Shown one piece after another: positions 7,748 through 52,902 of a DNA stretch of 64,000 bases. The stretch comes from a virus (taxonomy: Duplodnaviria; Caudoviricetes), in IMG/VR virus record IMGVR_UViG_3300012979_000003, positions 1 to 64,000 of that record, one strand, 5' to 3'. The notes under the pieces were generated by a model, which did not search any database, was not told the DNA's origin, and was given only the letters and a program-made list of their open reading frames with translations. The translations under genes were made by a program, and so were the position numbers. Position 1 is the stretch's first letter, and every line of letters starts with the position of its first letter.

Positions 7748-7830
7748 TTTGATAATGCGTTTAAACGGATGAATAGGTTACCGCTATATATTAAATAGTG
7801 GCGTTAACGTTAATCCTAGATTGGAACTCC

Positions 7831-7862
7831 AAAAAGGGGTGAGTAGGGTTCCCTACTCACTC
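7831..7862 (-). terminator. Rho-independent terminator overlapping the TAG stop of 7853..8455
   Basis: GAGTGAGTAGGG-AA-CCCTACTCACCC followed by CTTTTT on the minus strand. Confidence 0.7.
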
Positions 7863-8455
7863 ACCTCTTCATCCTCTACGTCGCCGAATAACTCGGCGCG
7901 TACATCGGCCCATGTAATGGGATCGATGTAGTAGTCGGAGTAATCCTCTCCGCGGACGGGAACGTACCACGTTCCTGCCTTGTCTTCGTCCGGCTCATCT
8001 TGAGCCAGACAACGACGCATCATTTCCGCGTCCACAAGGGTGCGGAAATTCTCACCAAGGTCGTCTAAGGCGACCACACTCACTGACGCAACGCACGTCG
8101 GTGGAACTGCTTCCACCGTGTCGTTGCCATCGGCATCACGGACAATTCGCTTCCTATGCTGTATAAGCTTAGGAACGTTGTCGTCCGTGTAGATAACGCC
8201 CTTTCCAAGGGAAACGGCGTTTGTAAGTCTCAGTCGTTTATCGACTGAAACCTCTGCACCATCCTTCGGCATCTGTGCAAGCACAGATTCGAAGAACTCA
8301 CTTTGGGAACCCCAGTTCCCAAGTATCCGAGTGAAGCCACCCTTGGCTTCCTCGGACTTTGAACACTCAACCATTAGGAATTGAGTGCCTCTGGTTGATG
8401 TACGCAGCGTAGCTGCTACTGCGTACAGTTCGACACTTTGTGTTGATTGTCTCAT
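7853..8455 (-). CDS. Hypothetical protein with acidic C-terminus (possible ssDNA-binding protein), first gene of the left arm
   Basis: 200-aa ORF, GC-richer than its surroundings. It ends DVEDEEVSE-TAG inside a terminator hairpin. The SSB idea rests only on the acidic tail. Confidence 0.65.
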   Translation of the reverse strand: MRQSTQSVELYAVAATLRTSTRGTQFLMVECSKSEEAKGGFTRILGNWGSQSEFFESVLAQMPKDGAEVSVDKRLRLTNAVSLGKGVIYTDDNVPKLIQHRKRIVRDADGNDTVEAVPPTCVASVSVVALDDLGENFRTLVDAEMMRRCLAQDEPDEDKAGTWYVPVRGEDYSDYYIDPITWADVRAELFGDVEDEEVSE

Positions 8456-8567
8456 AATAACGAAGTTTTATTGATTAATACTCGAATGTGAAACATTCGG
8501 TTCTCACCGAATGACCGGGGCTTGCCACGGCCATGAGGGTAGGGGGGCCTTGAATGGAGATGGATTC

Positions 8568-14731: not shown

Positions 14732-15487
14732 ATGGTTGACTTCTAGAAGAAAATTCGTAATTCTGATAAATTGATTTCATATCTACCAAGCATCCCCTTA
14801 GATGAAGTGAGTATTCATCATTGGGGATGTTGTGGTATCTATCAAATCAAAAATAAAAAGAATGGAAAGTTGTATATCGGTTAGGCATTGAACATTAAGA
14901 AGCGACTGCTGCAACACATTTCTACAGCAAAACGATCTGCAAAACTTCCAATACACCTGGCGATAAATAAATACGGTATTGACTGCTTCGAGGTGACAAT
15001 ATTGGCTTCAGTGAATTTGTATGGAAAGTCAAAAGACACAATTAAGACTGAGTTAAACGCCCTAGAACAATTCTATATTGAATTGTATGATAGTTATACA
15101 AACGGATACAACGCTACAATTGGTGGAGATTGTGGACGATTAGGGCAGCATCATTCCGAACAAACTAAGTTGAAGATGAAGCGATCTGCAAAAGGTTATA
15201 AACCAAAGTGTGCCAAAGACGCTTAGAAACCGGTTTTCGGATACGATTTGCAGAATAAACGATTTATTGATGGCGAAAGTGTTGCTGATGTTGCTAGAAA
15301 ATGCGGTGTTGACACCAGAAGCGTTAGTTATATTTGTAACAATACCACGTACACATTGGGAGGTAGATTCATTGCACACTATCGTTTTTTATTTTCATTT
15401 GAACGTGAGGATTTGGTAAATCGAATAAATTGGTACTTTTCTAAGAATTACAAACCGTCTAGAGGGCAGCACAAATATCATGGTTGA
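14732..15487 (+). CDS. GIY-YIG homing endonuclease (NUMOD3/HTH C-terminus) with a terminase-derived N-terminus and 3 in-frame TAGs
   Basis: MVDF(Q)KKIRNSDK...CGIYQIKNKKNGKLYIG(Q)A...GYN...HHSEQTKLKM. TAGs at 14744, 14882 and 15224. The TGA stop overlaps the terL start. Confidence 0.9.
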
Positions 15488-17543
15488 CTTTAACAAAAAA
15501 ATAAAAAATTCAGATAAGTTCAGATAGAGTGCCCTGACTTTCATAAGTACAGGGCATTACTGTTCATACCCACCTGGATCTACTGAGTACTTTCAGTTTT
15601 GGGATGAAGAGAAGCGTAGATGCTTAGACGGTTATACTGCTGATGATGGAGATTACATCACAGGGTATAACTATTTTTATTTAAACTATTGCCCAATCGA
15701 CCGTATCGTATATGAAGAAGTAACCGATAGATTTGGTGTAACCAAATAGGTACGTAAGAAGAAGTTATTCTTCCCAGACTTCTATGATTACGACTATTAC
15801 TTTTATTGGGCAGTATAGGAAGCAGAAGATAACGGTAAACACATGTGTGTACTTAAGTCACGACGCAAAGGTTATTCTTTTAAGTGTGGATCAATGTGTT
15901 GTCGTAACTATTACTTTATTCCAAATTCGAAATCATACGTATACGTAAGTAATAAGCAATATCTTACTGAAGACGGTATATTGAATAAAGCTTGGGCATA
16001 TTTGGACTTCATTGACAAGCATACAGCATGGGGTAAAAAGCGTCAAGTGTTTGATCAAATGATGCACAAACGTGCGTCATTCTTAGTATCAGATGAGTTC
16101 GGTAATAAGATTGAAACTGGTTATAAATCTGAGATAATCGGCGTATCCTTGAAGGATAATCCTGGTAGTGTGCGTGGTAAAGCAGGTAAACTAATCTTAT
16201 TTGAGGAGGCTGGTTCATTTCCTGAGTTAGCTGCCGCTTGGCAAGTAGCTAGACCGTCTGTAGAACAAGATGGTATCGCATATGGTTTGATGTTGGCATT
16301 TGGTACTGGGGGTGATGAAGGTAGTAGTTTTACTTCATTAAAAGATATGTTCTATAACCCTAAAGGTTATAACTGTTTAGAGTTTGAAAACATATGGGAT
16401 GAGGCTGTAGAACAAGGTAGTAAATGCGGATTCTTCATACCGTAGTTTACTAATTTGGATGTTCGCGATAACGACAGCAAACGCTTGTATATGGACGAAG
16501 ACGGTAATACATTGCACAAAAAAGCAATGGATTACGTACTATCCTTACGTAAGGAAGTAATTGAAAACGCGACCAGTCAATAGGCTGTAGATAGGTATGT
16601 TGCAGAGCAGCCCATTACGCCACGTGAAGCCTGTCTTGAATTTACCGGTAACATCTTCCCAAAGAAGGAATTACAGAATCATTTGGCATTCATTCGTACA
16701 CACAAAAATGTGTAGGCACACAAACAGATTGGTGATTTAGTATTCGACCACGATGGTAACATACAATGGGAAATAAAGAAACATGGTGATATTACTAGGT
16801 ACCCGTTGAACAAAAATGATGACCCTACTGGAGCAATTGTGATATGGGAGCACCCAGTCAAAGATGCACCACACGGGTTGTATATTGCCGGAATTGACTC
16901 GTACGACTATGACCAATCTGGTACCAATTCACTAGGTAGCTGCATTATCTATAAACGTTTCTAGAACTTTGAAGAGTATTATGACTTACCAGTAGCAGAG
17001 TATACAGGCCGTCCTGCAACCGCTGAGATATTCTACGAAAACATACGCAAGTTGCTTACATATTATAATGCAACAGCGATGTATGAAAATCAGAATAAAG
17101 GTCTATTCACATACATGACACAGAAGCATTGTGACTACTTACTTGCGGATCAGCCTGATATATTGGCAGACATTGTTGGTAATTCTACAGTACAGCGTAA
17201 GAAGGGTTGTCATATGAATAAGTAGATTAAAGCGTGGGGAGAAGGTAAGATTAAAGACTGGTTAAATGAAGAATATGCACCTGGTAAAAAGAACCTTACA
17301 AAGATACTTTCTGAACCATTATTGGAAGAATTAATAAGCTATAATGACTAGGGAAACTTCGACCGCGTAATGGCTTTTATGCAGATTATAATATACCGTG
17401 AACAACTTTTTAACGTTGTTGTCAAATAGCGCGAGGAAGTCAATAAATCACGTTTGTTGTTTGATGGGCCTATCTTTACCAATGAGTGGTTTAATGATTC
17501 TTCGTATGATACAAATGATAATATACCGGTATTTACATTTTAA
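15480..17543 (+). CDS. terL: Terminase large subunit (687 aa, 10 in-frame TAGs)
   Basis: Walker A-like LKSRRKGYS, Walker B LILFEEAG, FGTGG, and nuclease motifs YIAGIDSYD and GNFDRV. The frame is continuous from ATG 15480 to TAA 17543 when TAG is read through. Confidence 0.93.
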
Positions 17544-17545
17544 TT

Positions 17546-20050
17546 ATGAGAGATATTAAAAGTTTCCCTACACAGAAATTGTCTATGTTTAAGAAAACAC
17601 AGGCTTGGAAAGAAGCTTGTGTTGACTACATTATCGGATCAGGTAGTGTTGGTATGGGGGCATAGACTAGGAATCGTTAGGGAGAAATGCAAGAATTATA
17701 CGATTTGTACAATGGTATTTACGATGAAAAGAATCTAAAACATGTTACAAATCCGTTCAAGTAGGCTGACCAGTTCCCAGCAACTGCGCAAGACTACAAT
17801 ATAATTAAACCCAAAGTAGATGTATTGCTTGGGGAAGAGACCAAACGCCCCTTCAACTTTAAAGTATGTCGCACTAGTGATATTGCTACAGGTGAGATTC
17901 AAGAGACAGCTAAAAAGATGTTGGAAGACTATTTGATGGCTACGTTTATGTCCAAACTGTCTCCTGAGAATCAACAGCGTTATCAACAGGCATTAGAGTC
18001 TGGTGAGATACAACAACCAGAGGCTATTGCAAAATACATCACAAAAGATTATAAAGACATTGCAGAGAGTGCTGCACATCACACACTCAATTACCTAAAA
18101 CTTAAACTCAACCTTACCCATGAATTTTACAAAGGTTGGGAGCACGCATTGATTGGTGGCGAAGAATGTTACTACGTTGGTATTCGTAACGGTGAACCGT
18201 TTGTGGAATGTCGGAATCCGATGAGGATTACTTATGAAACATTTGATGGTATGGAATTCATCCACGAAGCTGCATGGTGTTGCTATGAAATGGATATGAG
18301 TGCCACCGAAATCTATGACAACTTTTACGACAAGATGACAGAAAAACAACTCAATGAGTTGTTAGAGTTGATTGAAGATAAACCAGGTGGTAGATCTGCA
18401 AAACTCGGTAAGTCATCTTTGGACTACAACCATATAGAGATTCGCAATCGTAATACACTTACTGACAATCCGTTTGACGCAGATCACATTAAAGTGTGGC
18501 ATTGCTGTTGGAAATCATTCAAGAAGATTGGTTTTGTAAGTATCCTCAACCCTGAAACTGAAGAAGTTGAAGAATATCAGGTTGACGAGAACTACAAGGA
18601 AACTGGTTTAGAAGAATCAGTTGAGTGGAAATGGATCATTGAAATATGGGAAGGATACCGTATTGGTAAAGATATGTATCTTGGTATACAGCCTTTAGAG
18701 TACCAACACGTGTCTATGGAAAACCCAAATGCACAGAAACTGCCTTATACTGGTGCCGTGTATAACAACCTTAACACGAAACCACGTTCACTCGTCAGCA
18801 TTATGAAACCACTTCAGTACATGTATATTATATTATGGTATAGACTGGAGTTAGCTATCGCTAGAGATAAAGGTAAAGTTGCAGTAATGGATGTAACGCA
18901 GATACCTAAGAATATGGGTATCGATGTCAATAAGTGGATGCACTATTTGTCGGCACTTGGTGTTGCGTTTGTGAACCCATACGAAACCGGTTGGGACATC
19001 CCTGGTAGAGAAGGTGGTAGACCTAGTCAGTTCAATCAGATGCAGGCATGGGATTTGTCTATGTCAAACGTAATTGCTCAGTATATTCAGTTGATGGATA
19101 AGATTGAGGATATGCTTGCGCAATTAACTGGTATTACTCCTCAGAGACAAGGTGCCATTTCATCTAGTGAATTAGTAGGCAATGTTGAGAGATCAGTAAT
19201 TCAGTCTTCACACATTACTGAACCTTGGTTCTGGGTACACAATCAGGTTAAGAAGCAAGTACTTACTATGTTGTTGGATACAGCTAAGTTTGCATGGAAA
19301 GGTAATAAGAAGTCACTGCATTATGTACTTGATGATGCTACTAGAGCATTCATAAATCTGTCAGATCAATTCTTCAATGAGGACATGGATGTATTTGTTG
19401 ATGACAGCACTAAGGAGAATCAACAGATTGAAATGCTTAGAAATCTTATGTAGCCCGCAATGCAGAATGGAGCTAGTTTGTTAGATATTGCTGAGATCAT
19501 TACTTTGGATAATGTCAACTTGATTAAGCAACGTTTGCAAGAGATTGAAGAGAAGCGTATGCAGCAAATGCAAGAACAACAGCAACGTGAACAAGAAATG
19601 CAGATGCAGTTGCAACAGGCTGAGAATGAAGCTAAGGAAGAAGAACTTATGCTTAAGGAAGCTGAACTTGATTTGCAGAAGTATAAGATTGATCAAGACA
19701 ACGCTACTAAGATTACTGTAGCTCAGTTGAATGCGTACAGAGGCAGTGAGAATATGGATCAGAATGGCAATGGAATACCCGATCCTATTGAAATTGCACA
19801 CGAAGCACTGGAAGAACGTAAACAAGCATCTGATGAAGCATCTAAACAATTTGAACTCAATAACAAGCGTAGAGAGTTGGAAATGAAACGTGAGATGGAG
19901 AATAAGCAGATTGAGTTGGAACGTGAACGTATGCAGCATGAGATGAAACTACAGAAAGCTAAGGACGATGCTGCAATGCAACGCGAAAAGCTTAAAGCAC
20001 GTACTGCAATTAGAAATAAGGTAGCTGGCGAATCTAAGAAGAAATCATGA
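17546..20050 (+). CDS. Portal protein (834 aa, in-frame TAGs)
   Basis: Follows terL. Contains NIIKPKVDVLLGEE and a Gln-rich coiled-coil C-terminus typical of crAss portals. Joins track ORFs 17825 and 19460. Confidence 0.88.
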
Positions 20051-22787: not shown

Positions 22788-22822
22788 TGAAAAATTAATT
22801 TAATTAAATTATTTAAGTATTT

Positions 22823-24292
22823 ATGGATAACGATATTCTTAATGGATTAGTGCTCTATAAGGGTAAGCGTTTCAGCGACCTCGTAGACACTAACAAGATT
22901 TATGCAGCCTCACGTCAGGAGCCGTATAAAGTCGCTACCATCCTGTCATACGTATTCGGTACTAAGGACAGTGGTTACAGCACTTCATTGGATATGTTGA
23001 CTGGTGGTCTGGGTAATGTAATGACAATTGACAAACCTGTTTATGAGTGGAACGTAATGATCGAATCTGATCGTGCCGTTGCTATCCGCGACGCTAAGTG
23101 GAACGGTCAGTCTATTTCTACTGACACTCTCGCTGGTCTTGGTAACACTCCTATCACTCTTTGGTTGGAAGATAACATCTTTGGTCCTGGTGCCGTAATC
23201 GAATTTGATGACAAGAACTACCAGGTTCGTATCGATGGTGCTCCCTATCAGGATGGCAACCTTTGGGTTTACAACGCATTCATTGCTACAGCTCGTCCTT
23301 CAGACTACATCCCCGGTGATCTGTTGCAGCCTGGTTGTCAGGTATCTCGTGTTGCTTCTGCATACGAAGAGTACAGTGAAGAGGGTGATATCCTGAACTA
23401 CAGCACTCACATGGCTATGCGTAGCCACTTGTCTACTATCCGTATCAACTATGATATCACTGGTTCTGCTTATTCAGAAGTAATGACTATCGCTTTGAAG
23501 GATCCTAAGACTGGTAAGACTTCTTACTTGTGGGCTGATTATCAGGAGTGGTTGGCTCTCCGCGAGTGGTACAAGCGTATTGAGTACGCAATGGTATATT
23601 ATAAGAACAACGTAGATAAGGATGGTACTTGCCGTCTGAAGGGTACTAACGGTCGTCCTGTATATATGATGGCTGGTTTGCTGGAGCAGATTTCTCCTTC
23701 TAACCGTCGTTACTATACTAAGTTGACTGCTGAGTTGCTCGAAGACTTCTTGTTCGACCTCTCTTACAACGTACTTGGTACTAACGAGCGTAAGTTCGTT
23801 GCCTTGACTGGTGAGATGGGTATGCGTGAGTTTGACCGCGTATTGAAAGAGAAGGCAGCTAACTGGTCAGATATGGCTACTATCTTTGTTACTGGTTCTG
23901 GTGATAACCTTACTTTCGGTGGTCAGTTCAAGACTTACAAGATGATCAACGGTATCGAGTTGACTTTGAAGTATTTCCCCTTGTATGACAACACTGTTCA
24001 CAATCGTAAGTTGCACCCCGTTACTTTGAAGCCGGTTGAGTCATATCGTATGACTTTCTTGGATCTCGGTCGTCGTGACGGTTCAGCTAACATTGTTAAG
24101 GTTGTTCGTAAGGATCGTGAGTTTGTACAGTGGTACACTGGTGGTTCAGTTGGTCCCGATGGTTACAAGCACAGCACTAATACTCTCGCCTCTAACGGTA
24201 AGGACGGTTACACCGTATTCTTCCTCGGTGAGTTCGGTATAATGGTGAAGGATCCTAGAGCCTGCGGAGAATTGATCCTGGACGTAGAGTAA
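22823..24292 (+). CDS. Major capsid protein
   Basis: 489 aa with strong high-expression codon bias (CGT/GGT/ATC) and crAss MCP-like motifs (GLLEQI, FVALTGEMGMREFDR, DPRACGEL). No TAG. Confidence 0.9.
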   Translation: MDNDILNGLVLYKGKRFSDLVDTNKIYAASRQEPYKVATILSYVFGTKDSGYSTSLDMLTGGLGNVMTIDKPVYEWNVMIESDRAVAIRDAKWNGQSISTDTLAGLGNTPITLWLEDNIFGPGAVIEFDDKNYQVRIDGAPYQDGNLWVYNAFIATARPSDYIPGDLLQPGCQVSRVASAYEEYSEEGDILNYSTHMAMRSHLSTIRINYDITGSAYSEVMTIALKDPKTGKTSYLWADYQEWLALREWYKRIEYAMVYYKNNVDKDGTCRLKGTNGRPVYMMAGLLEQISPSNRRYYTKLTAELLEDFLFDLSYNVLGTNERKFVALTGEMGMREFDRVLKEKAANWSDMATIFVTGSGDNLTFGGQFKTYKMINGIELTLKYFPLYDNTVHNRKLHPVTLKPVESYRMTFLDLGRRDGSANIVKVVRKDREFVQWYTGGSVGPDGYKHSTNTLASNGKDGYTVFFLGEFGIMVKDPRACGELILDVE

Positions 24293-24370: not shown

Positions 24371-25450
24371 ATGGAAAAGACTTACGAAATTTATAGGTTG
24401 ACTAATACAGTAAATAACAAAATTTACATTGGTGGTACGACAGACGGGGCCGGTTATCGGTTCAAAAGACACATCGTCAAGGCGAAAGCCGGCTCCGAGT
24501 ACCCCTTACACAAAGCCATCATAGAATTTGGCGAGCAAAACTTTAAGCTTGACATTCTCGAAATGTGTGACAACCTTGATCACATGAATGAAAGAGAAGC
24601 TTATTGGATTGTAACACTCAGTAGTACAAATCCTGAAGTCGGATATAACGGGAAAGTAGGTGGTGGTATTAGATTCCAAACCGAAGAATCCAGAATAAAA
24701 ATTGGAAATGTCCACAGAGGCAAGATCAGTGATCATCGCAAAGCAGTTCTACAGTACGATGCCTTTGGTAACTTGATAAAAGAATTCCCTAGTCTTCAGA
24801 GTGCTAGCGAAGAAACTGGAATACAAAGAACTTCCATTCTTCGAGTAATCAACAAGAAGGCAATGAAGCCATCTAAGAAGAACCCTTATCTGTGGATATA
24901 TCGCGATTCTTTTGACGAAGTTCCTTTGCACGTTGAGTTAAAAGATTACTTCTTAGACCTGAATAGGGTTGAAGGGAATATAGAAAATCTTAGAAAAACT
25001 TGGGAGAAGAATCAAGTTATTAACGGTAACATGGCCGGTAGAGCATTACCCGTAGAACAATACGATTTGCAAAACAATTTAATTGCCAGATACAAAAGTA
25101 TTGCAGAAGCTGCCGAAAAATCAGGAGTAAGTACTACAACAATAAAAAGATATTTGAACAACCCAGAATACGTAGCCAATCTTAAAGGCGCACAGCGTAG
25201 TCAGTTCTTGTGGAAACGTGGTGATGTTAATGACGAATCATTGCGAATGACTTTGAAAGAATCTAGAGAAAAGGCTGCTGCAAAATATGCCAAAAAGATA
25301 GAATGCTACACTTTAGACGGAATTAAAGTGAGTGAACACCAAGGCATCGTAGAACTTGCTAAACGGCTTCACTCTGATTCAAGAACACTGAAATCATATA
25401 TTCTAGATGGTGTACCATTTAAAGGGTTTCTGTGGAAGTTTAAAGACTAA
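24371..25450 (+). CDS. GIY-YIG homing endonuclease with NUMOD1-like repeats
   Basis: EIYRLTNTVNNKIYIG, GYN, and repeated V(L/E)QYD..(G/N)NLI..(F/Y).S...A modules. Confidence 0.9.
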   Translation: MEKTYEIYRLTNTVNNKIYIGGTTDGAGYRFKRHIVKAKAGSEYPLHKAIIEFGEQNFKLDILEMCDNLDHMNEREAYWIVTLSSTNPEVGYNGKVGGGIRFQTEESRIKIGNVHRGKISDHRKAVLQYDAFGNLIKEFPSLQSASEETGIQRTSILRVINKKAMKPSKKNPYLWIYRDSFDEVPLHVELKDYFLDLNRVEGNIENLRKTWEKNQVINGNMAGRALPVEQYDLQNNLIARYKSIAEAAEKSGVSTTTIKRYLNNPEYVANLKGAQRSQFLWKRGDVNDESLRMTLKESREKAAAKYAKKIECYTLDGIKVSEHQGIVELAKRLHSDSRTLKSYILDGVPFKGFLWKFKD

Positions 25451-26951: not shown

Positions 26952-27673
26952 TGACAGCAAGAGAAATGCAAATTGAATTTGAACGCCGCTTGGCGTTAAT
27001 AAATCCTGAATTAGTAAATAACCAAAAGCCAGATTCAGATACAATCTTTTCATTTTTGAATGCGTACACGTTACGATTCGTGTAGCAGATTTTTAATTCG
27101 GAAGATTCTGCAGAAAACGGTACACGTATTCAAAAATATGGTAAAGACTCGATTTATACACTGCTGACAAAAACAGTTTTAACTGCAATTCCATCACAAT
27201 CAACCGACTTGGAGCCAAACAATCACTTTTTTTCTTTGCCAAATGATTACTTTTTGTATGTACGCAGTACTAGTGGTGTGAATGTGTTATATGATTTCAA
27301 AACTGGCAAACTCCGCAGAGTTCCAAACGAATTGGTATCTGAAGAAGAATTGAATAAAATTTTAACATCGGCGTGGGATCAAATAATATTACCACACCCG
27401 TACGTATCTCTAAATACTGGCAGTTTGGGAGCATAGATTTCGCCCAGGTTGAATTTAATAGCCGATAAATACACGACAGTTTATGATCTATAGTTAGTTT
27501 ATTATAGAAGACCCAAACTGTTTAATGTGTTGGGGGTAGATGGCGAAACAGTATTAAACGCATGTGAATTACCGGAAGCGACGCATTTGGCAATTGTTGA
27601 CGGTGCGGTGAACATGTTCATTGCCGAGAACAAATATAGACTTAGTGCTAATACAAAACAAGATAAAGAATGA
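26951..27673 (+). CDS. Tail ring / head-tail connector protein 2 (in-frame TAGs)
   Basis: MTAREMQIEFERRL...KPDSDTIFSFLN...CELPEATHLAIVDGAV. Coupled to neighbours by TAATG/ATGA overlaps. Confidence 0.75.
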
Positions 27674-28410
27674 CACCGTTTGAATTTCAAGTAGCATTTG
27701 AGAGAGAATTAAACGTGTTTTACAAGGCGTTGGAAAAACCAACATCTGACACAACGTTTTATTGGCTCAACCAAGCTGTTGTAAAATTTGTTAAAACTAG
27801 ATACAGCGGTACAAATGCAAAAACAACATCGTTTGAACAAGACCAAAAACGAATTGATGATTTGCGAACATTGGTTACACGTAAGACATTTACTACTAAA
27901 GATAAAAGTGTTACATCATTGTATAGCAAAAATGAATATTCTATAGAACTTCCAGGAAATTATGTATTCTTGGTTGGAACTAGAGTTGGTATACTCCCCA
28001 GAACCGATGGATATAATAAACATTTATCGTGTTGGAATATTGACGACGATGGGAACGCAGTAATGCGATATGTGGATCCAATTGAGGTAACACATGACAC
28101 ATTGGACAGAGAATTAGAAAATTCTTTATCAGAACATCGTGTGCATTATTGTTCAGCGAAGCCATTGAAATTGTTGCGAGGAAATCGAATAACGTTTTAT
28201 ACTGATGACCATTACAGAGTAGACGAGGTACAACTAGAGTACATAAGAATGCCAAGAGCTATTACTTTAGTGTAGCCTTTTGTAAATTACTTAGAATTGC
28301 CAGAACATACCCATCAGGAAATCGTTAAATTGGCGGTTCAGATGTACTTAGAAAGTACTGCTGATCAAAGATACACTTCGTATTCCAACGAAGTAAATAC
28401 AATGGAATAA
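27670..28410 (+). CDS. Tail ring / head-tail connector protein 3
   Basis: MTPFEFQVAFERE...SFEQDQKRIDDL...(TAG 28273)...ELPEHTHQEIVKLAV. Confidence 0.78.
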
Positions 28411-28454
28411 TTAACCTGCGCCCTGGCCGTGGAAATTGACTAAAAATTAAAGCT

Positions 28455-29096
28455 ATGTCATATGCCGAACTGCTAAATTCAGATGTTAAGAAACTTAACA
28501 ACGTTGTTTATCTGATTTGCAACAAAACAAACAATAAAAAGTATGTTGGACAGACTTCAAAAACACTGGGTGATCGAATAGCTATGCATATCTGGCAAAG
28601 TAAAAATCAACGAGGTTATTTTCATAAAGCGTTGTCTAAATACGGAATTGAAAATTTCGATATACAGATCATAGACGTATGTGACAATAAAAGTAGTTTA
28701 AATGAACGAGAGATTTACTGGATAAACCATTTTGGATCCAATAATCGAGATCTCGGATATAATTTAACAAAAGGTGGTTCTGCTTATACACATGTATCTG
28801 TACCTAAGAAAGATTCAGATGCAACTAAACAAAAGAAATCAGAATCTGCAAAACGCAAATGGCAAGATCAAGAATATCGCAATCGATATAAACGTAGTAG
28901 AAAAGATTACATAAAAATCGCGCAATTGGACTTAAACGGTAATCTTGTAAACGTACACCCTACCATAACCGATGCTGAAAAGTATTTGTTTGGCAAACGA
29001 AATGATAAGCTTCGTATCAAACTTGTTGTTAAGAATATGGATTATTACTTGTGTAATGGGTTCATGTGGCAGTTGTATGATAAGTTTATAGTTTAA
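28455..29096 (+). CDS. GIY-YIG homing endonuclease
   Basis: VVYLICNKTNNKKYVGQT, GYN and a NUMOD-like C-terminus. Flanked by a perfect 13-bp inverted repeat. Confidence 0.88.
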   Translation: MSYAELLNSDVKKLNNVVYLICNKTNNKKYVGQTSKTLGDRIAMHIWQSKNQRGYFHKALSKYGIENFDIQIIDVCDNKSSLNEREIYWINHFGSNNRDLGYNLTKGGSAYTHVSVPKKDSDATKQKKSESAKRKWQDQEYRNRYKRSRKDYIKIAQLDLNGNLVNVHPTITDAEKYLFGKRNDKLRIKLVVKNMDYYLCNGFMWQLYDKFIV

Positions 29097-29165
29097 TTTT
29101 TAGTGGGAAAGTAGAAAGGGGTAATGATGGGCGCGATTTACATAACTTAATAAATATTATTTAAA

Positions 29166-30191
29166 ATGATTCAGAGAGTTGATACCGTATTGATCGGTAA
29201 ACAGATTGCATCCGCTACTGACATCGCTTCAATGGCTGAAGGTGACGTAGCAATCTTTAACGAAAATCGTATGCCTATCGCCGCAGCTGACGCTGCTGAC
29301 GCTACTACTTTGTATATCGGTGTTGCTGGTAAGGAAGTAGAAGCTGTTGATAAGGATGGTAACATCACCAAGACTCGTCTTGTTGATTTTTCAAACCCCA
29401 TTAAGAAAGATTCTAAACCCCGTATGCACGTAAGCGCACACGTAGAACCCATAGAAGAGGAGATTACTATTGATCTCGCTAACGCTACTGTGGTAGCTGG
29501 TCACCGTTATGTTCTTCGTATTGTTTACAAGGATATTGAAGGTGCACCCGGTCAGTTTACTCATACCTATGAGCACTACGCTACTAGCGATCAGGCTGCT
29601 GATCTGCTCGCAGCTTTGCTGAAAAAGATCAATAAGCACGCCAATCGTCGTGTTTCTGCTACTGTTAGTGGTACTACTATGACCTTGACTGCAATGGCTA
29701 AGACTGACAACGAAGGCGTAGATTCACTCAACGAGTATTCTATCGTTAATATGGAAGCTACCATGTATGAGACTGTACCTGGTCAGTTGCTGAGCAACAT
29801 CCCCGAGAGCTTTGGCGAAGAGATCGAAAAGACTCCTGCTACTCACGGTGTTGGTTATTGGAAGCAAGTTCGTGATCAGGAAGTTCGCAACATGGGCTAC
29901 AAAGGGTTGGTTTACACTGGCACATTCCCCGAGTTGAAACAGGATATGAAGACTGTTGAGGGTGCTGAGTACAATGTCATTACTATTGAAAATGACAACC
30001 TGTATTTGAGCAACGACAACCAGTATATCAAGACCACACCTATGGTTACTGAAGTATACGTTCCTGATGAAGATTATACTACAATTGCCACAGCTTTGAA
30101 GAATTTTGGCGTAGTTGAATTGAACGCTGACGCAAGTAACACAGATGGTACAAGTAACAGCGACCCAGATACAGGCGATACCCAGCTGTAA
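29166..30191 (+). CDS. Abundant structural protein (auxiliary capsid-protein-like)
   Basis: 341 aa with high-expression codon bias like the MCP and no TAG, followed by a terminator. Confidence 0.65.
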   Translation: MIQRVDTVLIGKQIASATDIASMAEGDVAIFNENRMPIAAADAADATTLYIGVAGKEVEAVDKDGNITKTRLVDFSNPIKKDSKPRMHVSAHVEPIEEEITIDLANATVVAGHRYVLRIVYKDIEGAPGQFTHTYEHYATSDQAADLLAALLKKINKHANRRVSATVSGTTMTLTAMAKTDNEGVDSLNEYSIVNMEATMYETVPGQLLSNIPESFGEEIEKTPATHGVGYWKQVRDQEVRNMGYKGLVYTGTFPELKQDMKTVEGAEYNVITIENDNLYLSNDNQYIKTTPMVTEVYVPDEDYTTIATALKNFGVVELNADASNTDGTSNSDPDTGDTQL

Positions 30192-30819: not shown

Positions 30820-31483
30820 TCAAAATCACCATTGTGATTCTGGTTTACCATTTTGTTTACTCAAATCAGTGTTGTATGACGTTTGCAGTGTTTTGCACGA
30901 AGAGGACTTCTACTATAAGTACGCATACATACCGAAAGAACTACTTCCTGGAGGTACGGTAAATCATCCACATCCGGATGATCCGACACCAGATGAATAT
31001 TATCCGGTTATCCCTGAAGATACTCCAATTATTCCAGATAATCCAGACATAGATGATCCTGATAATCCTGACAATCCCGATAATCCGGACAACCCTGATA
31101 ACCCAGATAATCCAGATGCACCCATCAACAACGCAATCTACATCGGAACAATATCTATGCCCATTACAGGCATAAAAAGTTTTAAAGATGTAACCCAAGC
31201 CGATATAAAGAAGTTGACATCAGTTGCTGACGGCACTTATAACAAATACGAAATACAAGTGAACTCTTACGATCTTATCACAGTCGCTGTTCCAAGTAAT
31301 AGAAAAGTATATTGTGATGACGGGTTTGGTGGAAGAATCCCGTTTTACGTAGATATTGTCGATGCGTATGGTCAACCTTTTTATTGTAATGGGGACGTGA
31401 CTTTGACTATCGATAATGCAGTATATGCAATATACGGATTATTTACTGGAGCAGCAGGTACACTTTATATTTATATAGAATGA
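30800..31483 (+). CDS. Tail-module protein with an Asp-Asn-Pro linker
   Basis: 227-aa ORF with a (DNP)6 repeat. Confidence 0.7.
   Translation: MLHSCCNQNHHCDSGLPFCLLKSVLYDVCSVLHEEDFYYKYAYIPKELLPGGTVNHPHPDDPTPDEYYPVIPEDTPIIPDNPDIDDPDNPDNPDNPDNPDNPDNPDAPINNAIYIGTISMPITGIKSFKDVTQADIKKLTSVADGTYNKYEIQVNSYDLITVAVPSNRKVYCDDGFGGRIPFYVDIVDAYGQPFYCNGDVTLTIDNAVYAIYGLFTGAAGTLYIYIE
31061..31114 (+). repeat. Degenerate 9-bp tandem repeat encoding (DNP)6
   Basis: GAYAAYCCN repeated six times. Confidence 0.85.
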
Positions 31484-34137
31484 TGGATAAAATTATAATA
31501 AACGCCCCGTTACAAATAAATACCGAACAGGATGACGCATCATTGGATGCTAGAGAATTTGTTGAAACTGAGCAGGACATATATAATATTGAATGCCCTC
31601 ACGAAGGATTGATTGTGTATGTCAGGGATTCCAGTAAATTCTTTGTTGTAACCTCCGTAGGTGCTGCTGCAGTGAATGGTCAGTATGTTGGTAGAAAAGT
31701 GAAAGAATATAGGTTATTTCAGAGCAATGGTATTAACTATCGTGGGGAATTCACATTAGACAACCTACCTCAGAATCCTACAGATGGCGATTGGTATAGA
31801 AATACCACATATGGAAAAACATACATAATGCAAAACGGTGCATGGTGTTTGATGGCGCAAGATGGTGTAAACGGAATTAATGGAGATAAAGGCGACAAAG
31901 GTGAAACTGGTGATAAAGGTCAGAAAGGAGAAAAGGGTGAAAAGGGAGATCCTGGTGAAGACGCTCCGTATCAGGAATTCATTTATTTGTTGACCGATTG
32001 GAAAGCTGGAGAAAAAGATGTATCTCAAATACGTATGCCTGAATATACAAATGAAGAATACCAGCATGACGACTTTATAAATTTACTTTCCGAAAACAAA
32101 AGACACGGTTGGACAGATAGTCCAAGAGGTGTGAGTAGCGATATGCTGACAGAATGGGTTTCACACCGACGTAAAGCTAGTACAAACGGTATGACACAAT
32201 GGGGAGAATTAAGTTCTCCGGTACCTTGGTCAGTATGGGGAGTAAATGGTACAGATGGAGATGGTATTACATACATCTTTTGTAAATCCGCTAAAGAGCC
32301 TAATGAATTTTTAAAAACTGATTGGGGAACGATTTTGGTGTTTTCTGACGATGAAATATCTTCTGGAAAACATACACACATTGATGGAATACCAGAATCA
32401 GCAAAAGAAGCTGGTTGGACAGATAATCCAGAAAATACTGATTCTACAGACAGATTCATTTACGTTGCAATTCGCAGACGAATAACAAATGCTGAGGGTA
32501 TCGCCGAATGGCAAACGTATTTTACTACACCAACCCTTTGGGCAAGTTACGGATAGAAAGGTGATACGGGTGACCCGGGTCCTGAAGCAACTTTTGATTT
32601 TTATGAATTGCTACCGAGCGCATCCACAATTACCGCAACATTTGATCAAGCTACAAGTCGTATAACCAAAATATCCCCCACATCGTTGCGCGCAGATCTG
32701 AAAAAGATTACGCAATCTGGATCTTAGATTACGAATACCTTGGCAGATGCTGAATTAATCGTCTCTGCGTATACTTATGAAGAATCAGTAAGTGACGATA
32801 AAATATACAACTTAAGTGTTGCTGTACCAAGCATCGACTTATTGGAATGGTGGGGATATGAAATTCCTGCATACGTTGAAATGCAACTTAAATTGAATGG
32901 AACCGTATTTGATACCAAACGTATCCCAGTACAGTATTCATTTACTGGAGTTTCGGCAACAATGCCGGATTGGGTTGACGAATGGAATGACCCTAACTCA
33001 AAAGCTTAGTTTAACGGTCAAAACGTTTTAGCAGTACGAGCTTATATTGGTGATCAGCCAAAACCAAGTGAATTGTGGTCTGGTATATTGATTGGCAGTA
33101 GTATTGCATATGTTGACGGATTACATTGGGATGAAGATCCGATGAACACATATGATTTTTCGGGGATATTGGCAGTTAAGAATTTTGATCCCAATGTAGG
33201 GGACAACATCATTGGAGAAAATGATGCAGAAGTTTCATTTGCATTAGACGCCAAGACTGGAGATGCTTATTTCAACGGTATTGTGTATGCAACTGCTGGT
33301 GAGTTTAAAGGTACGGTGTATGCGACAGATGGTAAGTTTACTGGAGAGATTGAAGCTACATCCGGTAAGTTTGAGAATGGTGTCATCACCAACTCAACTG
33401 TAAGCAATCTCACTGTAAGCAATTCTTCAGATGATTATAATGTTATAATCGGAGGAGATCAAGCCGGTGACAGAGCATTTACAATAAATGGGGTAAACAT
33501 TCATGAGCGATTCCAATCTGCTGTAGTTACAGCTTATGCGCCCTTCGTACAAGAAGGTGATCTATTAGATTCGTCAGCAGATCTCGTACTCCCTGATGAT
33601 ACTTTGGACAGAGTGGAATTAGACTTCACAAATAAGACTGTCGACATTTACAATACAATTGCCAACGCAATAGCAAGAGATCCCTATTTTGTGGTTAAGA
33701 CTACAGAAGAACATCCCATACAAGGTATGGTGACCGTATATTATCCTGCAGAGGTTTCACAAAACGGAAGTTCATACGACGTAGGATTTAATCGTAAATC
33801 TATGTCACTGGCACCAATTGTAGAAATTAATTGTGATACTCAAGGTAAAACTGGATCAATTTCAGTTACGTCTTACGAAGCAGTCGATGGTATATATAGT
33901 AGAACTACTATGAATGGCGGTTCTTTTGCAGTAGAATACAATGAATCAGCTAGTTTCGGAGATTCTACTTCCATTTCGTCAGTAAGTATTGTTGACAACG
34001 GCATAAAGATTTTGGGAATCCCTACTTGCGCAACAACGCATACCCACAATTATGACAAGGGTGTGCTATATGTTGATGAAAATGGAGTTGTTAGAGTATC
34101 TAATGGAGAAGGTTCATATATAAAAGCAACAGTATAA
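31480..34137 (+). CDS. Tail fibre protein with collagen-like GXY repeats (885 aa, 3 TAGs)
   Basis: GDKGDKGETGDKGQKGEKGEKGDPG, duplicated GWTD-P domains and G(Q)KGDTGDPGP. Joins ORFs 31480, 32740 and 33073. Confidence 0.8.
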
Positions 34138-47894: not shown

Positions 47895-48788
47895 ATGGTA
47901 GATAAATTAATAAGTTCTAGCGCCGTAGTTGCCAAAGTAATTGCAGATAACAATCTTCAAGAAAAAGATATGCGTATCGCAGATATACGTGCTTGGATTG
48001 GCGAAGCTGTTGAAAAGATCGGCGCTGTAACTCAATTAGACCACAGAGTTGCGATTATAAACATCAAAGGATATTAGGCGTAGTTGCCATGCGATTTGTA
48101 CAAACTAGACCAAGTAGCCTACTCAAGTAACGGGAAAGGATGGTTGCCTATGCGTAAAACTAGTAGTGCATTTCCTGCACAGTTGAATCGTCACAGTAAG
48201 TGTCATAACTGTGAAACAAAGATGACGATACCCGATGAAGCTATATTTCAACTCACAAAGACATTATTCAATCTTACTGATGACGCAGCAGCGTTAGCCA
48301 AATTAAATGAGAATCCTGGCATACGCTCAACATTAGCTACTTTAGTGGATAACCATACCGTAGATGTACGATATGGTTTTAAGCGTTTACATACGTATCT
48401 TCAGTACGATGTCAAACCTGGGTACTTAGTATGTCCTATGTGTGATGGACAACTTAAAGTATCGTATTATGCAATACATACTGATAACGAAGGTATGCCT
48501 ATGATTCCTGATATGTAGTCATATCAAGAAGCAATATACTGGTATGTTACTATGAAGATGTTTTACCCTGATTACATGAAAGGTAAAATACCTCAGTACA
48601 TATACAATGATATGAAAAACTCATGGAACTTCTATGCCAAACAAGCATATGCCGAAGCAATGCTCCCTAATGTGGATGGATTAGAATCTATATAGAATAA
48701 TTGGAATAGATTAGTACCTGATTTAGACGACCACGATGAATTCTTTGATCATCTTGGTGATGAAGAAATAATTTATAATTGGAATTGA
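47895..48788 (+). CDS. Tail tubular/ring protein (P22 gp4-like)
   Basis: Position between the IHF-like gene and the stabilization protein. Contains WIGEAVEKIG, LPCDLYKL and G.PMIPD. 4 TAGs. Confidence 0.72.
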
Positions 48789-48789
48789 T

Positions 48790-51700
48790 ATGCAGAACAG
48801 TTAGACAAATACCTTTTTAAAAGGTATGAATTTAGATACGGCAAAGGAGTTTATCGGTTCCGACCAATACACATACGCTGAAAATATACACTTGTCTGCA
48901 AAAGATTAGACAGAAGGTTGTATAACAAATCACAAAAGCTTATATGATACTGGAGTTGCTGTTAACACCGATGGTAAAATTTTAGCAACAACGTCTGGTA
49001 GTATATATCATGAAGACTCTGTACAAGAATGCTACATCGTATTAAGTAAATTGCTTGACGGTAGCACAAATCTGTCAGCGTATATCGGAGTATCTGCTGT
49101 CGAAGAAACACCCATCAAGGTATTTGATCTCACGTCATTTACTTTAGATGTTGCTTCCGATAGGGTTAAAATGATAAATGTATATGACAATCCACATCAG
49201 TCAAATGTGTACATAGCTAGTGAAGGTAGTGAGTTGCAAGTAGTGAATCTTTAGGCAAAAAATAATCCAAATGACACGTTTTCAATATTTCCAGAAACCG
49301 GCGCATTACCACCAATGGAATTTTATAATGAAGTTGTCGGTGCGCTAGACAATTGTAGTGTGCAATATGCATATCAATTATTCGACGTTCGCGGAAAGTA
49401 TACTGCGTTATCAGCAGTAAGTTCTGTTATTCCGGTAGGAACTGGTAAACCAGGCGAATCTTCTGGACTCGGTTTGTAGTTAAAAATAACCGGTAATTTC
49501 AAAAATTATTCAAAGATACGTGTGTATAAAATAAAATACACTAGTTCGCTTGAATTACCAAACGTGTATATAAAAGATGAAATAAATATATCTGGAAATA
49601 CACAAATTATATATTAGGATACATCTGAGAAATTCCTTACCCAAATAACTTTAGATGAATTCCAAAATATAAAAAGAATTGGATTTTCTGCAGCAACTAT
49701 TGAATTTTTCAACAATCGATTATATGCTGCCAACTTGACTGAAAATTTATTTACTGTTGAGTTTGACGCTCGTACGTATCGTTGTGATGATTCAGGAACT
49801 GTAAAACTGGAGTCTGATACAAACGTGCAAGAAACTATAACAACAACAATGGTTGATGCGGTCAAGCCGAATACAATTGCTCAAGATCATGATGCAATAA
49901 ATCCGTCATTGCGGTCAGTTTCTGATGAAAAATATAGTTACACCAACAAATTTGGAAATTTGTTTTTAGGTGGTTCTGGGCCGAATGTGGATTATTGTTT
50001 TGTTCATCCATACGTATATTTATCTGCAAACAACTCTGTGTGTATTGAGCCTGGCGCAGATTCAAATGTAGTTAGTTCAGATTTGTCGTTCAATAGTGGA
50101 AGTTTTACTTTAAGTGCCATAAATGGGTCTAAATTCTATGCCCCGTGTACAATCCCATCCGGAACAAGTCAATTTGTGACCGAAGACTACATTGATTACG
50201 ATGATATAGCCTATGTGGCTAAAGACAAATCATTCAAGGATACGTACTTTAGTACGAAATTCAGGGGTTATAAACGAGGTGAGATATACTCGTTTGGTAT
50301 AGTGTTTTATAACCGAAAACACTAGCCGTCACAAGTGCATTGGATAGGTGATATAAAAATACCAAACTCTGACTATCCGTACATTGCTGCATACAGTGAT
50401 GGTGACACACAACATGATTGTGTTGGTAGCTCCGTAGGTATACGATTTAAAGTTGACTTATCAAACATAGATAAGACAACGCGCGAAGACATTTCAGCAT
50501 TTGAAATCGTAAGATGTGACCGAACGGTTGCCGATAAGACAATATTGTGTCAGGGTATATGCAGTAAGTTGAATGGTGGGTACTTTAGTAAAGAAGATGG
50601 ATTTCCTGACAAAACGGGATTTGGAAAATTATTAAATACACCTTTTTGCAAAAACGTATTTACTGAAATACGTATGATAGATCACTTAAGTGATATATCA
50701 TACTCTGTGAACAGAGAGCGTCCTTATGCAAATGCTGTTGCGTTTATTTCTCCAGAAGTATCAACAAATCGTGAATCGGTTGAGGGACTGTTAGACGGAG
50801 CAAAAAATGTACAAGTTAAAGGATTTTTAACATCTGTTATATACAATGAATCTCCTTTTGAAAGGCTTGGCGACGGACTAATCGTATTTAAAAATATAAC
50901 ATAGGGAATAGTATATACTACTGATCGCCCAGAAGCAAAAGCTAAAGTACAAGGTCGTATTGTTGGGCAATATGATAATCATGATACCAGACCGCGCTAT
51001 GTGTTCGGAATTACTTCCACAAATAGTTTGCGGAACGAAAACGATTCTATTCTTACTGACACACTATATAAACTTTTCACTCCGGTTGTTGACAGCCAAT
51101 AGTCAGAAATTAAAACTATAAATTTGAACGCATACAAATACATAGCCCCATACGATCCAATATAGCAATATTCCCCAATTTCGCTAGACAACACAGCTGT
51201 CGGTGATTTAGCATTTCAAAATATATGTAATGGTTTTCCATTAGGAGCTGACCCGACTGGCGACATAGGTAAATATTTTGGTGCGGGTGGTCCAAAATTA
51301 ATATTGCTTGGAGATTTCTACAATCTTTAGATACTTGATGGTAGTGATGTACACATTGCGTTGAATGACAAACTCAAACAAGTTGATGATTTTGTCAGAT
51401 ATGATACGTTTGCTAACAATATTCGAAATGTGTCGGAAATATTGCAAGTTGCTGTGCCAATAGTAGAGCTTACATAGGACGTTGGTAATTAGTATGGGGG
51501 GTTTTCAAAAACTGCCAGACTTAGCCGATCATATTAGTCAATTGGTTGTTACAGTAGTGTGGAAAAGGACGAATCTGTTTTTTACGTGAACTGCTTTGGC
51601 GGAGATACGTTTATTGAGTTGCACAACGATGTTTGGTCATCGTATATGACAAGGATTAAAAGTGATGGTGATACTTTTTCAGAAACACGTAACACTACTG

Positions 51701-52902
51701 TCAGAATATCATATCCTGTCGAGACCAGTATTAACCTTAGTAGGACGTATGGAATTGACTTGTAGAACCCTAAATACCTTTACGAACGCAAAGTCTTACA
51801 GGATCCTGCTTAGGTAGACAGTTACGTACAGACTGAACAACTAAACGCATACAACGATGCATACTCGCCGCACGCAACAAACATCATACATGTTGCACCT
51901 GGTTTATACGATTATGATAATAAACATTTGTTATATAGGGTGGTGGTGTCAAATGTTAAAAACTTTGGTGAAGTTGAAGACAAGCTTCAAGATTTCGATA
52001 CACTGAATTACTTAGATGTTGACGCAAAGTACGGCCCAATTACTAATTTGATTTCAAACAAAGAAAGGCTGTATTATACACAATCCAGGTGTTTTGGAAT
52101 GATCTCTTCTGAAGAAAGATCATTGGTGTAGGATACAAGTGGTTCGAGTCTATTGTTGGGTACAGGTACAGTACTGCAAAGATATATTACCATGAGTGTT
52201 GATTATGGTGACGATATTATCAATGACCACAGTATATTGTGTTCTGATTCTGGCATATATTGGTTCGACTCATTGGCAAAAGATTTAGTATTGTACGACG
52301 GAAGTAGGATAGGTGGGTTATCTAATACAAAAAATGTAAATGGTTTTTTCAAAGCCATAAAATCTGAAATACATTCTGGAAGAAATCGCCAATCCGGTGA
52401 AATATGGTTTAAAGCAAAAGACGATAATAGGGCATTAATTTACAATGAAAATATTGGTCAATTTGTGTCATATTATACAGACAATGTTGAATATATTTCG
52501 TTAATGAAAGGGTGTTCCGTCGGAATAGATGTTTCCAAAAATCAGCTGATAAAACTTCATGACAATGAAGCTGGGGTTAAGCACAATAGTATGATACATT
52601 TTGTAGTTAATGATAACCCGTTAATAGTAAAAGTGTTTGATACTTTAGTTGTGGTTGATACAAATCTTCCAACACATGACGGAAACAATTTGCAATATCA
52701 ATTTGAGTGCAAAACTACAAGACAAACCAGCACTTAGCGTGCAAATGGTAGAGCGTCTACAGAAGGTGTTTATTACTTACCAATCGGCAGAGATGAAAAT
52801 GCAGAACGTATGCGAGGAAGGACGCTTACGGTAAAATTTGTAGCAAACGGTGAATTCAACATTCCTTCAATACAAACAGTATATAGATAGTCAAGAGCAT
52901 GA
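48790..52902 (+). CDS. Tail stabilization/muzzle protein (P22 gp10-like, ~1370 aa, many TAGs)
   Basis: TNTFLKGMNLD N-terminus, GYKRGEIYSFGIVFY, WIGDIKIP and YLDVDAKYGPIT. All track fragments from 49051 to 52153 share one frame. Confidence 0.8.

Follow-up and report, generated by a model that had tools for sequence, protein, structure and literature searches.

Two routes are known by which a homing endonuclease gene can settle in a genome without doing harm: inside a self-splicing intron or intein, and by landing between genes. In group I introns such as that of T4 td with its endonuclease I-TevI, a GIY-YIG open reading frame (ORF) is looped out of an RNA helix, the fold is preserved and pairing limits the access of ribosomes (PMC2988022). 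The free-standing seg and mob endonuclease genes of T4 are intergenic, are polymorphic for presence and absence, and have a predicted hairpin over their start region. Bonocora et al. reportedly described in 2011 how T4 mobA and the gene 60 bypass form a cassette, in which the damage done by insertion of a mobile endonuclease is offset by an RNA-level device that it brings along. Here we analyse a locus that shares several of these traits, in a 64,000-nt stretch of DNA from a crAss-like phage of the family Suoliviridae (positions 1 to 64,000 of IMG/VR record IMGVR_UViG_3300012979_000003; the whole stretch is hereafter called the window). Between the last tail-ring gene and the gene for a homologue of the auxiliary capsid protein gp36 of phage crAss001 lies a conserved RNA element, and a GIY-YIG endonuclease gene is nested in the loop of its hairpin P2.

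The locus departs from each of the described systems. Unlike a group I intron, the host RNA has no catalytic core and no exons to join, and no gene is interrupted; the insert is tolerated because the loop is dispensable and not because of splicing. In contrast to seg and mob, the predicted masking helix is formed by cassette ends that lie ~650 nt apart and doubles as the stem of a conserved host RNA, and the insertion point is a tetraloop. The device of the mobA/gene 60 cassette is a translational bypass in a coding gene, whereas here a terminal inverted repeat restores the hairpin of a non-coding RNA. An endonuclease nested in the loop of a non-intron RNA is a new variation on the known lifestyles of these genes. 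It would provide a third harmless route, in which a dispensable RNA loop is combined with ends that close the stem again, and, if true, an equivalent of intron-borne homing that needs no splicing, in phages that are among the most abundant of the gut. The overall explanation that we consider probable is that a conserved RNA, with the GIY-YIG cassette nested in P2, acts in cis as a leader that controls the output of the auxiliary capsid gene.

A near-identity DNA search gave no match to the locus among GenBank phages, and relatives were then collected through the protein encoded downstream of the element, which also placed the phage in Suoliviridae. The first four relatives had a spacer of ~100 nt with the same core and a short hairpin in place of the window's ORF. 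Sampling was extended to ~250 loci from IMG/VR and GenBank, which gave 51 distinct cores. The element measures roughly 50-90 nt, lies between the last tail-ring gene and the gp36 homologue, and is present as a single copy in every Suoliviridae relative examined. Its core consists, in order, of the 5′ arm of the 7-bp closing helix P1, the 10-nt strand J5 (RAC(G/C)NGGAAA), the hairpin P2, the 8-nt strand J3 (RAGUAGAR) and the 3′ arm of P1. The motif was detected 5′ of the gp36-like gene in all subfamilies sampled (Uncouvirinae, Bearivirinae, Loutivirinae, Boorivirinae and Oafivirinae), across which the identity of the downstream protein drops to 27-31%. An earlier note on the window, made from its sequence without database searches, had proposed that a functional RNA was invaded at a loop and had staked this on the conservation of the core CGTGGAAA...GAAAGTAG or the outer helix in relatives that lack the endonuclease. 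The core and a closing helix are conserved in the endonuclease-free relatives of every subfamily sampled, and the proposal withstood this comparison.

Whole-leader alignments by MAFFT misaligned the stems; they were replaced by an anchored parse and by a gapless seed for a covariance model. In the anchored parse, which is independent of structure, columns 2-7 of P1 pair in 51/51 sequences, and a single column shows up to 4-5 pair types. These columns contain 11 G·U pairs and zero A·C pairs in the 51 distinct sequences. The pattern of G·U but not A·C holds in P1 and P2, and it indicates a + strand transcript, not duplex DNA. In the covariance-model alignment, 97.1% of the cells are paired (63.4% in shuffles), compensatory changes occur in 10/10 pairs of P1 and P2, and pairing collapses on sliding the partners. 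The model found one match with E<0.01 per locus in 216 kb, always at the known site, and a single significant match in 5/5 complete genomes. Model R1 detected no second copy in the 100-kb genome of the window phage; it missed the phage's own copy as well, because the cassette splits P2. These results demonstrate a folded RNA of the + strand that is conserved throughout Suoliviridae, and the strong covariation bears out the structured RNA that the earlier note had supposed.

The Rfam 15 collection gave no family match, even when short endonuclease-free segments were searched at permissive thresholds (E up to 10); the matches returned were at chance level, far under the gathering scores and inconsistent between loci. 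A search of the literature found no description of such a motif, and the RNA appears to be new to science. The covariation of its structure is unusually clean, and the gut phages that carry it belong to an abundant family that is for the most part uncultured.

The variable helices enclose ~18 unpaired core nucleotides that are nearly invariant. In J5, C3, G6, G7 and A8-A10 are invariant in 51/51 distinct sequences, as is AGUAG in J3. The AGUA of J3 stands opposite the GAA of J5 in the orientation that the loop E/sarcin-ricin module (bulged-G, S-turn) requires, as checked by hand. From this signature, which is one of sequence alone, the internal loop is predicted to adopt the loop E/sarcin-ricin three-dimensional motif. 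It differs from sarcin-ricin loops in having extra invariant nucleotides outside the module (RACGNG; GAA on the 3′ strand).

Two further likenesses of this loop were considered and dropped. A T-box-like reading, in which the UAG of J3 would be the specifier of an amber suppressor tRNA and the GG of J5 would pair with its CCA end, was dropped on inspection by hand: the S-turn has its unpaired nucleotides on the side opposite to the one required, and NGGA stands where UGGN would be needed. A resemblance to the E-loop of the glutamine riboswitch could not be substantiated, and there was no Rfam match. As a separate observation, the identity of the first P2 pair goes with that of the first J3 nucleotide among the 51 cores: U-A occurs with A in 37 sequences and C-G with G in 12, the exceptions being L261, L320 and forms with G·U plus G. 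This co-change hints at a base triple or at an ambiguity of register.

P2 is constrained neither in length nor in its loop. It ranges from 2 bp plus GAAA up to 56 nt, with variants such as CC-GAAA-GG (in one phage), UGC-GAAA-GCA (in others) and UCG-AAA-CGA (in another), and its loops include GAAA, GAGA, GUGA, AAA, CUAGA and nested hairpins. The hairpin is thus shown to be dispensable, and this is why a GIY-YIG homing endonuclease could settle in it. In Oafivirinae, P2 is an arm of 29-56 nt with a nested, covarying hairpin.

We compared the locus with contigs from public ruminant-gut runs and found both empty and occupied alleles. In the empty allele, found in one sheep-gut contig of 100.7 kb and in a contig from another study, position 28444 is joined to 29099 with GAGA or GTGA between them. 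The cassette is absent from X1 and X4 and present in run X2 (bovine gut, third study), with flanks that are 95-99% identical. The empty-allele P2 folds as ACUAAA-GNRA-UUUAGU; only 28445-29098 is gone, and the rest of the RNA is entire. The cassette is therefore a discrete mobile insertion in the P2 loop with a natural presence/absence polymorphism. Its ends, AAUUAAA (28445-28451) and UUUAAUU (29092-29098), form a perfect 7-bp inverted repeat. The cassette's own terminal repeat, added to the native 6-bp stem, lengthens P2 to a 13-bp stem whose loop is the ORF, and no splicing is needed for the host fold to survive. The earlier note was right that the ORF is looped out of a hairpin whose fold is preserved, since near-identical phages have a GNRA tetraloop where the window has a 654-nt insert. 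The perfect 13-bp repeat that it described exists, with the refinement that 7 of the 13 pairs belong to the mobile cassette itself.

All coordinates given in that note, for the repeat, for GCGCCC/GGGCGC and for the GIY-YIG ORF, proved exact. The repeat arms, ACTAAAAATTAAA (28439-28451) and TTTAATTTTTAGT (29092-29104), are complementary at 13/13 positions and lie 640 nt apart; the 5′ arm stops 3 nt short of the endonuclease ATG and the 3′ arm includes the TAA stop. A perfect inverted repeat of at least 13 nt arose somewhere in a 1-kb stretch in 4/300 dinucleotide shuffles (~1%). Taken alone, the repeat is modestly unusual and suggestive only; we judge it to be real because of its position and the comparative data, not because of chance statistics. 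When the whole 758-nt intergenic RNA was folded with ViennaRNA, 10/13 repeat pairs had a probability of at least 0.98. In the minimum-energy fold, this long helix runs on across the endonuclease AUG.

The endonuclease has a GIY-YIG domain (Pfam PF01541, E 1.7e-13, over the curated cut-off) and matches the homing endonucleases of PHROG 314 (E 1.3e-31). A search with the single protein gave no match; an alignment-based search found full-length relatives at this site only, among the matches listed. P2-nested endonucleases of the same family occur in three further clades (L128; L131, L162 and L198; L248), and the copies of L128, L131 and L248 are 47-50% identical to that of the window, colinear and full length. 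Insert plus stem measure 666-673 nt in these clades. Their end-pairings, predicted by folding, differ from clade to clade, yet each reaches the start codon, and an A-U pair in L128 is replaced by G-C in L131, a compensatory change. The start region of the endonuclease thus lies in a predicted helix in the window, L128, L131 and L248, a result of folding only, with 2/4 energies within the random range. In L181, L185, L313 and L316, an endonuclease-free P2 stands on the stem that flanks the endonuclease in other phages; these stems are either footprints of loss or preferred targets. In-frame TAG codons occur in the nested copy at L131:1790-2473 (also in L162 and L198). By the standard code this copy would end at the invariant UAG of J3, and reading TAG as glutamine extends it by a further 24 nt. 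Translation of this copy may depend on the phage's code switch, given the in-frame TAGs.

In most clades a further hairpin, P3, lies 3′ of P1, ahead of the AU-rich start region of the auxiliary capsid gene. The 5′ arm of the leader can pair with its own P3 region at a mean of −13.0 kcal/mol, compared with −5.6±2.5 for shuffled arms; the own P3 partner ranks first in distinct clades, and the pairing is also seen by RNAalifold. For the window, the duplex of 5′ arm and P3 region reaches −14.8 kcal/mol (rank 1/26). This pairing overlaps P1, so that the two are mutually exclusive, and it is missing in Oafivirinae. The GCGCCC/GGGCGC helix, which the earlier note took to be the outer helix of the core, is the window lineage's form of this conserved pairing that competes with P1. 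The helix is thus present and part of a conserved long-range interaction, but the closing helix of the family is P1 (28420-28424/29118-29122).

Oafivirinae have no P3. In this subfamily the motif takes up the entire spacer: P1 overlaps the upstream TAA with its 5′ arm, and its 3′ arm stops 6-15 nt ahead of the ATG. Overall, the distance from the upstream stop to P1 is −3 to 24 nt. The nested P2 hairpin of Oafivirinae (L210-L226, L319-L323) ends in a loop conserved as UUAGGU or, in some phages, UUUAGGU; its stems covary (GCUAG/CUAGC, GCCAG/CUGGC, GAUAG/CUAUC and GCCGG/CCGGU). As P3 is missing there, this conserved loop may take over its role. Where P3 is present, its loop often carries a clade-specific, GC-rich palindrome of 6-10 nt: TAAGCGCTTA, GCGCGC, TGAGCTCA, GGATATCC, GGCGCC, GACGTC or GTCGAC (for example at L125:2462-2475, L206:2468-2477, L205:1975-1991 and L261:1470-1477). 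Such palindromes were found in 19/24 distinct leaders and in 13% of shuffled loops, and in some clades the 5′ arm contains no partner for them. Dimerisation by loop-loop contact and a DNA-level site are both possible explanations.

The gene that follows the element encodes a protein without a match to any sequence family. Its AlphaFold model (predicted local distance difference test score, pLDDT, 81.9) gave as its best Foldseek match chain a of 7qof, the crAss001 capsid (333 amino acids, E 5.8e-14, template-modelling score 0.63). The length and position of this chain fit gp36 (PMC10172136), and we therefore take the gene to encode an auxiliary capsid homologue. The earlier note had expected a structural gene here, which is correct; it is, however, not the major capsid protein gene, which lies at 22817-24292 and matches crAss001 gp32. 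In crAss001, gp36 is present in 9 copies per asymmetric unit, the same number as the major capsid protein, and the ring proteins are dodecamers (PMC10172136). By homology to crAss001, the output needed would rise ~20-45-fold from the ring genes to the auxiliary capsid gene. The element sits at this junction of tail-ring and capsid output and offers a handle on protein ratios in long late operons.

The most likely role of the RNA is to control the expression of the auxiliary capsid gene in cis, from an intercistronic leader. It has in common with the T4 gene 32 pseudoknot and the MS2 coat-protein operator that a structured RNA lies just 5′ of a structural or abundant gene, with an AU-rich start region after it; a further likeness would be that output is controlled at the RNA level. 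Unlike these, it belongs to other phages with other hosts (Bacteroidales) and has no sequence or structural similarity to either. Bacteroidales make little use of Shine-Dalgarno pairing. We propose that P1 draws the stop codon of the upstream gene close to the start region of the downstream one and that the S-turn-like loop serves as a docking site for a protein or the ribosome. Since the second conserved pairing competes with P1, alternation between P1 and the 5′ arm-P3 pairing may act as a two-state switch on translation or mRNA stability. The cassette would be tolerated through its ends, which close P2 again, and the closing helix, extended over the AUG in the predicted fold, would keep ribosomes off the endonuclease start. 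In T-even phages, the translation of endonuclease genes is limited by RNA structure, and ribosome traffic would otherwise disturb the host RNA (PMC2988022). The nuclease probably targets the invariant loop-coding DNA on both sides of P2, a choice of target that would allow spread between diverged phages. With a natural pair of alleles that differ by the cassette and four independent versions of the end-pairing, the system is easy to test.

Several observations weigh against this explanation. In the window, P1 is only 5 bp long and includes two G·U-type pairs (G·U, three C-G, U·G), and the thermodynamic fold favours the outer helix, which belongs to the minimum-energy structure of the 758-nt intergenic RNA. 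The family core may for this reason be altered or weakened in the window lineage. Many of the aligned sequences are akin, so that cell counts exaggerate the number of independent events. Among random pairs with the spacing of the cassette ends, 30% attain −12.7 kcal/mol and 3% attain −19 or lower, and 2/4 of the duplex energies of those ends fall inside the random range; the argument for nesting rests on position and compensation and not on energy. Finally, in crAss001, a phage of another family, the gene order is shared but the spacer measures 31 nt and does not match the motif. This phage manages the same problem of stoichiometry without the element, which is thus no general requirement.

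More tentatively, the element could be a new class of RNA switch, driven by a ligand, a protein, a tRNA or the ribosome, or a new small ribozyme, that times or boosts capsid protein production and harbours a dedicated endonuclease lineage in a dispensable loop with stem-restoring ends; we regard this bolder proposal as possible but rather doubtful. The narrower idea of a self-cleaving ribozyme or a host RNase processing site, where cleavage would part the mRNA of the auxiliary capsid gene from that of the ring genes and leave the former stabilised by a structure at its 5′ or 3′ end, seems unlikely to us. It would suit a core of ribozyme size with ~18 near-invariant unpaired nucleotides between variable helices, at a site between genes of very different required output and with a pseudoknot-like long-range pairing. 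However, Rfam 15 gave no ribozyme match for the short endonuclease-free segments at permissive thresholds, two helices with one internal loop between them do not resemble the known classes of small self-cleaving RNA, and Oafivirinae have neither P3 nor the long-range pairing. That last point also tells against a riboswitch-like sensor whose loop binds a small molecule or tRNA and thereby chooses between P1 and the competing pairing, as one whole subfamily lacks the competing helix. Such a sensor would account for a 5′ arm common to two mutually exclusive conserved pairings, for an invariant loop that resembles an aptamer, and for the Oafivirinae P1 3′ arm adjoining the start codon as in translational riboswitches. 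Yet the Rfam 15 scans revealed no likeness to any riboswitch family, and metabolite sensing ahead of a capsid gene has no obvious rationale; we hold this reading to be quite improbable. Among the functions listed in the earlier note, a regulatory leader fits best, and nothing supports the ribozyme or the intron.

Two further readings were weighed. The conserved block might act as DNA, as a regulator site, a promoter, a single-stranded DNA hairpin or a homing site kept by the endonuclease, with the RNA fold incidental. The GC-rich palindromes of the P3 loops resemble what operator sites can be, and the spacer attracts two kinds of endonuclease gene. But common G·U and absent A·C in P1 and P2 fit + strand RNA or a single strand and not a duplex, the stems covary while their sequences vary freely, the motif persists in endonuclease-free genomes, which are the large majority, and the cassette ends evolve while staying complementary; there is little chance that this account is correct. 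Hardly credible at all is a degenerate group I or other intron with its endonuclease, or else a chance repeat around a free-standing endonuclease in a meaningless spacer. An endonuclease ORF that loops out of an RNA helix is a typical trait of group I introns, and repeats of at least 13 nt do arise in about 1% of shuffles. Against this, neither the window nor the endonuclease-free loci matched Intron_gpI or another intron family at E up to 10; no gene is interrupted, as the upstream ORF ends at 28410 and the downstream one starts at 29166; the empty allele retains the full RNA minus the loop insert only; and family-wide conservation and covariation contradict it. The earlier note had likewise set a group I intron aside, in agreement with the missing catalytic-core match and the uninterrupted genes. 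The regulatory leader with a cassette in P2 remains the reading that we prefer, and its parts are listed in Table 1.

Table 1. Positions in the window of the RNA element, the endonuclease cassette and the flanking genes
Feature	Position	Strand	Remarks
Upstream gene	27670..28410	+	last of three ~244-aa (amino acid) paralogues, tail ring protein-like
Outer-helix 5′ arm, (U)GCGCCC	28417..28423	+	shares CCC run with P1 5′ arm
P1 5′ arm, family register, GCCCU	28420..28424	+	from comparison with 51 distinct relatives and model alignment
J5, internal-loop 5′ strand, GCCGUGGAAA	28426..28435	+	consensus RAC(G/C)NGGAAA
Native P2 5′ arm, UUG-ACUAAA	28436..28444	+	kept in endonuclease-free alleles
Mobile cassette	28445..29098	+	654 nt, in place of the P2 GNRA tetraloop
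GIY-YIG homing endonuclease ORF	28455..29096	+	213 aa, no in-frame TAG
Native P2 3′ arm, UUUAGU-GGGA	29099..29108	+	from empty-allele comparison and fold
J3, internal-loop 3′ strand, AAGUAGAA	29109..29116	+	consensus RAGUAGAR
P1 3′ arm, GGGGU	29118..29122	+	from anchored comparison
Outer-helix 3′ arm, GGGCGC(G)	29129..29135	+	at the place of the P3 hairpin loop in relatives
Downstream gene	29166..30191	+	341 aa, no in-frame TAG; crAss001 gp36 (auxiliary capsid) homologue

The full record of the window phage comprises 100,253 bp with terminal repeats. The phage reads TAG as glutamine: fragmented + strand ORFs fuse into long genes under this code, among them 48772-52902, 31417-34137 and 15429-20050 in the window and many late genes. 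The major capsid, auxiliary capsid and both GIY-YIG genes of the window are free of TAG. The gene upstream of the element has an in-frame TAG at 28273-28275, read as glutamine, and ends with TAA at 28408-28410. It matches CrAss_Ring_3_4 of Pfam below threshold (E 3.2e-5). All three paralogues give sub-threshold matches to crAss ring-protein families and occupy the synteny slot of crAss001 gp34/gp35 (PMC10172136). A scan of the spacer, which does not cover Bacteroidales promoters, found no sigma-70 promoter or terminator.

The second GIY-YIG gene of the window (24371-25450, 359 aa, with NUMOD1 repeats) lies directly 3′ of the major capsid gene and belongs to a different family from the RNA-nested endonuclease. 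In several relatives, an HNH-type ORF is found between the element, past P3, and the auxiliary capsid gene: L005:2678-3004 (cr113_1), L205:2008-2508 (cr50_1), L235, L250, L284 and L061. Together with the nested GIY-YIG genes, these inserts mark the spacer as a hot spot for two unrelated endonuclease families. Phage crAss001, which is without the element, has annotated homing endonuclease genes at gp37 (L318:5402-6076, just after gp36) and gp41 (7818-8519, after gp40), and the structural block is crowded with endonuclease genes across crAss families.

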